DNA of 64,000 nucleotides from Eledone cirrhosa (lineage: Eukaryota), in assembly GCA_964016885.1 (NCBI GenBank), contig OZ024753.1, positions 5,642,001-5,706,000 of the forward strand, read 5' to 3'. The notes below the pieces were generated by a model. The model made no database searches, was not told the origin of the DNA, and saw nothing but the letters and a program-made list of their open reading frames with translations. A program made the position numbers and the translations under genes. Within the stretch, counting starts at the first letter, position 1. Each line of letters starts with the position of its first letter. Positions 16,341 to 17,420 of the stretch are shown here, one piece after another.

Positions 16341-17420
16341 ATGTAAGTATGTATGTATACGTACATACATATATGTATACAGACGTACAGTAGCATGCAT
16401 ATATATATATATATATATATATATATATATATATATATATATATATATATATATATATATATATATACATATATATACACATATGCATACAGGTACACAT
16501 ACATATATGCACGCATCAGTTTAGCCGACGTTTATTATAACGCCGGCCGCTTTGTTCGTTTGTTTGTCAACAAAGCGAACAGCCTGAATTTATGCCATAC
16601 GGTGTTAAGGCAACCACGTCACCTTTTTGTTCAACACTGACACAGGAACGATGTACTAGTTTCAAGCTTGTTAGCTATCATCAGCACCGTTTACCCATCT
16701 GCCAGATAGTTGAACGTTCGAAAGTATATACTTTCCTTAAGAAAATTAACGGCTGAGCAGCCTAATTTGCATATTGAGTGAGTTAAATCGGTCAGGCATA
16801 CCGAAAACGATAAGTTGAAAAAAAATGAAAACGAAATTTCATTTTTTTCAACTTATCGTTTTCGGTATGCCTGACCGATTTAACTCACTCAATATGCAAA
16901 TTAAGCTGCTCAGCCGTTAATTTTCTTAAGGAAAGTATATACTTTCGAACGTTCAACTATCTGGCAGATGGGTAAACGGTGCTGATGATAGCTAACAAGC
17001 TTGAAACTAGTACATCGTTCCTGTGTCAGTGTTGAACAAAAAGGTGACGTGGTTGCCTTAACACCGTATGGCATAAATTCAGGCTGTTCGATTTGTTGAC
17101 AAACAAACGAACAAAGCAGGCGTTATAATAAACGTCGGCTAAACTGATGCGTGCATATATGTATGTGTACCTGTATGCATATGTGTATATATATGTATAT
17201 ATATATATATATATATATATATATATATATATATATATATATATATATATATATATATATATATATATATATATATATATATATATATATATATATATAT
17301 GCATGCTACTGTACGTCTGTATACATATATGTATGTACGTATACATACATACTTACATTTAAGTAAGTGCCATACTAAGAGTGAGAAATGAAATTTCGTT
17401 TTCATTTTTTTTCAACTTAT
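16341..17420. mobile_element. (TA)n-embedded fold-back element B (~500-bp arms) with partial tandem head repeat
   Basis: 16341-~16830 is the reverse complement of ~16837-17358 with a few differences; 17387-17419 is the reverse complement of 16811-16844. Confidence 0.92.
16975..17019 (+). ncRNA. Minimal type I hammerhead ribozyme (mirror copy 16647-16691 on -)
   Basis: aacggtg CTGATGA t-agct-aaca-agct-t GAAA c-ta-GTA catcgtt: 7-bp stem I, 4-bp stem II, palindromic ACTAGT stem III, GUA site. Confidence 0.88.

Follow-up and report, generated by a model that had tools for sequence, protein, structure and literature searches.

Within the window, as the whole 64,000-nt stretch of DNA analysed here is termed (Eledone cirrhosa contig OZ024753.1 of assembly GCA_964016885.1, positions 5,642,001 to 5,706,000), a hairpin of about 1 kb lies between two (TA)n tracts, bears a hammerhead motif in each arm and appears to restart its own unit at one end. 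The question raised by this locus, termed Element B, is what kind of element it represents and from what template it was copied. Comparison with relatives across the host genome, which is 3.0 Gb in size and rich in (TA)n, identified Element B as one insertion of a young, abundant, non-coding tandem-repeat family with a unit of about 480 nt. It is very probably a non-LTR retrozyme that was mobilised by a Penelope-like element (PLE).

Structure of Element B

The arms of the hairpin could be aligned over approximately 500 nt with three substitutions, one 1-nt gap and one 3-nt gap, and a repeat search of the window returned arms at 16535–16824 and 16842–17131 (290 nt, 97%), which bears out the hairpin of about 1 kb reported in the initial annotation. 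The left arm (16343–16844, minus strand) consists of one unit with its 3′ end at a site termed here the short start site (unit 446, CTTACA followed by TA). The right arm (16837–17419, plus strand) consists of unit positions 9–479 followed by 1–28, with the long start site (CAACTTA followed by TA) marking its 3′ end. The (TA)n targets lie at 16293–16342 on the left and 17418–17756 on the right. Each arm also contains an internal (TA)n run, as had been noted previously, with unequal lengths of 69 nt on the left (16399–16467) and 105 nt on the right (17196–17300, (TA)52). The latter is enclosed by a long predicted RNA hairpin (17140–17357, plus strand), a region of A>G-only inherited changes.

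The restart of the unit head had been placed after the right arm and a linker. The segment 17386–17420 is the reverse complement of 16810–16844 (35 of 35 positions), and thus matches the left arm exactly. Relative to the head of the right arm it has one T more (8 T at 17400–17419 versus 7 T at 16837–16855), so that the head does recur, ending at 17419, 564 nt past 16855, but not letter for letter. The preceding "linker" of 27–28 nt (17359–17385) occurs once in the window, as described, but is an ordinary part of each tandem unit elsewhere. Linker and restart together are spanned by a PLE-type tail of about 60 nt (17359–17419, plus strand), which lies between the short and long start sites. The inversion junction (16837–16844) is an 8-nt microhomology, TTTCATTT, supplied by the tail's own inverted repeat.

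The arms are discordant at unit positions 263–290, with the variant "gcg" in the left arm (minus strand) and the variant "A" in the right arm (plus strand), while both carry the rare change 98A>T. This discordance could reflect the use of two templates or a conversion that took place afterwards; fold-back self-copying of one arm was rejected, as the arms bear different family variants. The change 98A>T was found at 10 places, four of them within the window copy and L216 (also L292; G000:C13 near 5476208). The latter locus is 182 kb away and has the inversion junction of the window copy together with 98A>T. It was rejected as a segmental duplicate of the window copy, since the flanks differ and the ends are swapped.

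Frames of at least 120 aa overlapping Element B were TA-repeat frames only, and an ORF with RT and GIY-YIG, the criterion for an autonomous PLE, was absent from Element B. The element is therefore non-coding, and is without LTR, PBS or PPT. Each of its arms holds approximately a single unit, with one hammerhead on either strand, so that the copy is likely unable to make a circle itself; this falls short of the two units taken to mark an active retrozyme in bioRxiv 10.64898/2026.07.22.740005.

Other features of the window should also be mentioned. A different hammerhead-bearing fragment (16070–16292, minus strand) lies between two TA runs, one of which is the left target of Element B. A near-perfect hairpin with a hammerhead in each arm is located in (TA)n at 43027–43352, with 96–97% copies in L085 and L095, and is likely another PLE-derived family. 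Broken frames resembling the RT and C-terminal parts of a non-LTR retrotransposon were detected at 20584–22199 (minus strand) and 50288–50686 (plus strand).

Family size, unit and sister families

A 309-nt query against the genome returned 1,362 first-look candidates, with 98–100% identity among the 46 matches listed, and an exact pattern for the hammerhead, designed to include older as well as young subfamilies, matched 23,939 times genome-wide. Copies were found to form head-to-tail arrays, as expected of a template, whether tandem or circular, with a length of about one unit, and their 109 measured periods ranged from 463 to 577 nt. The earlier estimate of a unit of about 560 nt therefore describes the window copy (period 564) but not the family, for which the median is 492 nt. 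The window period is inflated by its (TA)52, the family period being set mostly by the TA run. Units were numbered on a natural 479-nt copy (L021), in which the ribozyme cut is at 184, the TA run at about 363–388 and the tail at 447–479 plus 1–28. With tandem repeats, a hammerhead in every unit and no coding capacity, the assignment to a retrozyme-type element was upheld.

A divergent sister family of tandem 467-nt units, with arrays of up to 30 units, has kept the hammerhead, the position of the tail and the rule for the ends described below (all nine two-armed loci in which both ends are visible, of 12 examined). It has no internal (TA)n and inserts likewise, which indicates that this run is dispensable. 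A third hammerhead family, mostly monomeric, also has the upstream 12-mer discussed below and contains repeated octamer-like words. These two families are represented by the loci L188:2170-3470, L284-L286 and L288-L291.

The initial annotation had regarded the internal TA as a target of such elements. Among the 10 loci inspected for long gaps, another element does sit inside the internal TA run in two (L185 and L187), but the run is not needed for insertion; self-nesting inside it was not seen in these 10 loci. The element nested in L187 is a relative of the window fragment 16070–16292, and the arms there end unequally. The family shows retro-elements nesting in TA microsatellites and lengthening them.

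Insertion ends and the Penelope signature

Seventy-six loci were parsed, comprising the window copy, 15 from the first search, 58 collected along contig C1 by the long-end pattern and two long arrays. Forty-nine were inverted, 22 single-armed (L173, which was cut on the wrong side, being counted here for that reason alone) and five complex, and one long plus one short end was present in 42 of the 49. Within the 58-locus set, which was taken in C1 order with five already included loci skipped and was selected for one long end, 36 loci were inverted and the other arm ended at the short site in 32 of these. Exact junctions into TA numbered 424 genome-wide for the long end (7-T form only) and 2,375 for the short end, with none (exact pattern) at the ribozyme cut.

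The insertions thus have two fixed end sites about 60 nt apart, at unit 28 (long) and unit 446/449 (short). The 5′ breakpoints are scattered; of 98, only 3 lay no further than 10 nt from the cut, and 13 fell inside the TA run, where they could not be placed exactly. These observations identify the restart as a fixed site at which copying starts. The previous suggestion that it arose by copying past the ribozyme junction finds no support in that form, as the ends never coincide with the cut at unit 184. The proposed comparison of further copies for circular permutation did yield many copies, but their 3′ ends are not freely permuted.

Flanking DNA was duplicated in inverted orientation across the insertion at three of the 49 two-armed loci (L033, L035 and L205), and no direct flanking duplication was found among these 49. 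Two insertions 16 kb apart (L204 and L205) agree both in their inversion junction (unit 29/114) and in the variants that they carry.

A tail at one end together with an inversion is a signature of Penelope elements, and it explains the hairpin in a way that was missing from the initial annotation. PLEs with partial tandems, an inverted 5′-truncated copy, a tail of 30–40 bp at one end and (TA)n targeting are described in PMC8557442. According to PMC11167929, both strands are cut and extended in vitro by a PLE protein, which starts at two internal RNA sites bounding the tail. In that work the main in vitro substrate was uncut RNA and hammerhead cleavage was not needed, as hammerhead mutants did not impair insertion in vitro.

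Candidate loci with GIY-YIG numbered 10,597 in the E. cirrhosa genome, of which 150 were scored. Long ORFs among them encode an RT plus GIY-YIG as a C-terminal domain, and their translations show a CxxxxCxxC linker, a Neptune-type feature according to PMC8557442. One Neptune-like PLE family of this genome, examined at six loci, has (TA)n ends and a tail of about 62 nt, with the long and short ends on opposite arms in all three two-armed copies. No PLE sharing sequence with the unit was found in 50 of the 150 GIY-YIG loci, 30 of them with 1.5-kb flanks only. A search of the fetched loci for a helper (blastn and a five-sequence nhmmer profile) returned only neighbouring insertions of the same families, and a match in L091 was rejected as a PLE pLTR, being an older-subfamily insertion beside a PLE. 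A helper is therefore postulated from the shared end rule and target, as no sequence common to a PLE pLTR and the unit was found in the loci searched.

Hammerhead and putative RNA-stage marks

Both arms contain a minimal type I hammerhead, in agreement with the initial annotation. The right-arm copy (16976–17019, plus strand) has stem I ACGGTG/CATCGT, the CTGATGA box, stem II AGCT/AGCT and GAAACTAGTA, with the palindrome ACTAGT; on the basis of the motif, cleavage is predicted after 17012 (GTA at 17010–17012). The left-arm copy is located at 16647–16690 (minus strand), with GUA at 16656–16654. No Rfam match to Element B was obtained at the gathering level, and the minimum free energy structure of the isolated motif was not a hammerhead. 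When 16 chosen hammerheads were aligned, the core was invariant, 87% of cells were paired and double changes were seen in 5 of 14 pairs; these sequences are related, which means that a count against shuffles cannot be read as a probability, and a single divergent sequence contributes much of the covariation signal. In 15 of the 16 the G10.1-C11.1 pair, which is stressed in PMC4209133, was missing.

The ACUAGU duplex was predicted at −4.8 kcal/mol, and the 2-nt loop was not foldable as a monomer. The earlier expectation that a dimer would be needed is consistent with this modelling: stem III would require a second copy, as PMC4209133 describes. It should be noted, as a point against, that only one of nine retrozyme dimers was cut in vitro according to bioRxiv 10.64898/2026.07.22.740005. 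Inherited substitutions appear to avoid the ribozyme, with 0 of 35 events in its 33 core and stem positions versus 23 of 172 singletons (p 0.017; p 0.08 on distinct sites).

A second mark was found in the predicted hairpin of unit 312–446, where the inherited changes comprised nine A>G and no T>C, versus 16 and 14 among singletons (p 0.015); this test was post hoc, four loci that were mixed or old had been excluded, and certain of the changes co-occur. The older subfamilies carry A at the A>G sites. The predicted fold of a circular monomer was −161 kcal/mol versus −106 ± 6 for 40 shuffles, mostly by virtue of the TA hairpin. Double-stranded RNA is subject to A-to-I editing, and reverse transcriptase reads I as G. 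The A>G-only inherited changes are therefore suggestive of RNA editing in the TA hairpin.

Candidate promoter

A 12-mer, TATGCAAATTAG, is located at unit 65 and is followed by a TATA-like box. All three families retain this arrangement, with 27,220 matches versus 0 for a control. In the left arm of Element B the 12-mer, a predicted promoter element, is intact (16762–16773, minus strand), and in the right arm (16893–16904, plus strand) its last base is changed from G to A. The TATA-like box of the right arm (16936–16942, plus strand) lies 43 nt past the 12-mer start, and the geometry of U6 genes would place the transcription start near 16967 (plus strand).

The 12-mer or a one-base variant was present at −77 to −79 in four of five distinct U6 upstream strings of this genome, and in the fifth it was displaced by an insertion. 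It was also found upstream of the best of six U6atac matches and of the one MRP gene, and in 0 of 8 U1/U2 upstream regions. The distance from 12-mer to TATA, counted on the sequence, is 42–44 in the elements versus 47–48 in the Pol III genes. In a comparison of 20-nt ungapped best matches with shuffles, two to four of 60 shuffles equalled the value for one U6 gene and the others were not significant. As this test is weak, the case for a promoter rests on the position and on the exact 12-mer, from which it is likely that the unit holds a built-in promoter, with the U6-type element as the candidate. All T runs of at least four lie at unit 8–96, upstream of the predicted start near 139. Whole units are nevertheless copied, so that read-through would be needed, and a transcript made by Pol III would have to pass a T7 run; like the shorter distance to TATA, this counts against the proposal.

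As observations on the same gene class, TCAG lies at −56 to −58 in all eight U1/U2 upstream regions (L245, L247, L257, L258, L260-L262 and L267) and is accompanied by an AT-rich box near −30, the two together forming a candidate Pol II snRNA promoter of E. cirrhosa. The promoter 12-mer is absent from two U6atac-like copies (L278 and L279), which start at or just after (TA)n runs; this suggests that they are retrocopies. Neither a U6-type motif nor A>G marks in retrozymes were found in the mostly open-access literature searched.

Nature of the template

Several variants segregate at unit 258–312, two of which have 966 and 497 exact matches, and they can be used to follow the template of each arm. 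The two arms of one insertion were within one edit of each other at 21 of 23 loci, versus 9.5% of random pairs (0 of 10,000 permutations), with L203 and L168 left out as each contains two insertions. The window copy, as the one discordant case, counts against a common template. Rare variants were fixed across entire arrays, in 16 of 16 units of L208, 6 of 6 of L195 and 15 of 15 of L209, although smoothing by the assembly is possible for young arrays.

The array L161 contains two unit types, X and Y, which alternate through 7 + 7 units with no singleton substitutions. Of the only eight places at which the Y marks occur, six belong to L161 and the remaining two to an array of five units at a distance of 53 Mb (C1:178.82 Mb), where the order is Z Z Y Y X. 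The Y-X pair, adjacent once there and repeated throughout L161, is simply explained by a closed dimer, which this pattern favours. The five-unit array itself could not yield such a dimer by two cuts, as its X unit is terminal with no hammerhead behind it, and a sibling or intermediate would be needed. A closed circular template is considered fairly probable.

One alternative is insertion by the PLE machinery from an uncut linear read-through transcript of a tandem array, the long homogeneous arrays being formed afterwards by unequal crossing-over and arm-to-arm conversion and the hammerhead being a passenger. It would agree with uncut RNA as the main substrate in vitro (PMC11167929). Interspersed shared variants, typical of later unequal exchange, are seen in the 30- and 14-unit arrays of the sister family, and such variants also occur in L045, L209 and the five-unit array; partly shared variants were present in 12 of 29 arrays of at least three units in the family of Element B. 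The centre common to the window copy and L216 also points to copying at the DNA level. On the other hand, arrays of 14–16 units (both arms; L161, L208 and L031) hold only 0–2 singleton substitutions, leaving little time for several exchanges per arm. No source with a long X/Y run was found in the assembly, and inherited changes avoid the hammerhead (p 0.017, or 0.08 on distinct sites). This reading is considered unlikely.

It has also been considered that a single linear RNA serves the reverse transcriptase repeatedly, the enzyme jumping back to a downstream position of homology in a telomerase-like re-initiation that requires no covalent circle. This would account for a (Y X)n array derived from a terminal X unit without a downstream hammerhead, and PLE RTs are related to telomerase RT (PMC8557442). 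No indel was seen at unit 184/185 among the variants listed, however, nor do the 5′ breakpoints pile up at the cut, and such re-initiation is judged distinctly improbable. A DNA-level palindrome, MITE or fold-back accident in a microsatellite with a chance hammerhead can be dismissed as extremely improbable, for although the window copy resembles a terminal inverted repeat, (TA)n promotes hairpins and Rfam gave no match, the ends are asymmetric and fixed rather than symmetric terminal inverted repeats of fixed length, the centres vary, the arrays run head to tail, the window arms differ by family-level variants and the hammerhead stems covary.

Proposed mechanism

In the proposed scheme, transcription of a tandem array would be driven by the U6-type element that every unit contains. 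Cleavage at unit 184 would follow once neighbouring hammerheads had paired by way of ACUAGU, with monomer or dimer circles then being closed by a host ligase. The GIY-YIG domain of a PLE would nick both strands of a (TA)n tract, after which each target end would prime reverse transcription on the same RNA, in keeping with the agreement between arms. One end would start at the long site and the other at the short site, placing the tail on one arm only. Each cDNA may run round the circle for 0.1 to 15 units, and the two 5′-truncated cDNAs would be joined head to head; in the copies the joins are at variable points, often with short microhomology. This explanation as a whole, a hammerhead tandem family mobilised by a Neptune-type PLE with a likely circular RNA template, is considered probable.

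A more specific form of the proposal is tentative and rather doubtful. Here the family would be a self-contained circular-RNA retroposon, its circle combining a captured U6-type promoter, a ribozyme active only as a dimer and both PLE RT start sites. One enzyme dimer would copy one circle from the two sites simultaneously and so build both arms, and A-to-I edits made on the RNA hairpin would be written back and fixed across entire arrays. If true, such simultaneous copying would account for both the PLE tail and the inversion in a single step. The family provides thousands of near-identical protein-free copies in which variant marks record the template of each arm. It also offers a 480-nt substrate with two mapped start sites and a candidate promoter, together with a candidate helper ORF (938 aa, L080, Neptune-like).

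Comparison with known systems

The E. cirrhosa family resembles the metazoan non-LTR retrozymes (PMC7229834; PMC7761336; bioRxiv 10.64898/2026.07.22.740005) in consisting of non-coding tandem repeats with one type I hammerhead per unit, in its low GC, thousands of copies and weak stem III, and in the PLE origin and rolling copying proposed for them. Its unit is longer than the RNAs of 170–400 nt in PMC7229834 and within the 51–972 bp given in bioRxiv 10.64898/2026.07.22.740005. The present family explicitly shows a PLE tail and a TA target in addition to inverted arms, whereas the animal repeats are, according to PMC7761336, without a motif pointing to a helper. Circular RNA has been demonstrated for the known retrozymes and is predicted for the present family.

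The Neptune-type PLE pseudo-LTRs (PMC8557442; PMC11167929; PMC4209133) likewise have partial tandems, an inverted 5′-truncated copy, a tail at one end and (TA)n targets, as well as a minimal palindromic hammerhead and hammerhead pairs on opposite strands 100–700 bp apart. The E. cirrhosa family differs in having no ORF, a tail of about 60 nt instead of 30–40 and many full units per arm. Newt satellite 2 is also a hammerhead tandem repeat with an internal snRNA-type promoter, which reportedly drives Pol II (PMC2220036), while the E. cirrhosa motif matches that of the Pol III genes U6, U6atac and MRP, and not U1 or U2, with a shorter spacing.

The joining of two cDNAs also invites comparison with another class of element. 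In L1 twin priming, two target ends prime on one RNA and the cDNAs are joined head to head. The E. cirrhosa family differs from this by its fixed, internal priming sites, by the lack of poly(A) and by arms in which many units are possible.

The origin of tandem, inverted and tailed PLE insertions is called unresolved in PMC8557442, and rolling copying of retrozyme circles has been proposed (PMC7761336; PMC4209133). The family joins the non-LTR retrozymes as a new member, for which a PLE origin and rolling copying were already proposed in print. What is added here is a genomic record of the mechanism, in the form of end polarity, a probable single template, probable dimer amplification, a candidate promoter and putative editing marks.
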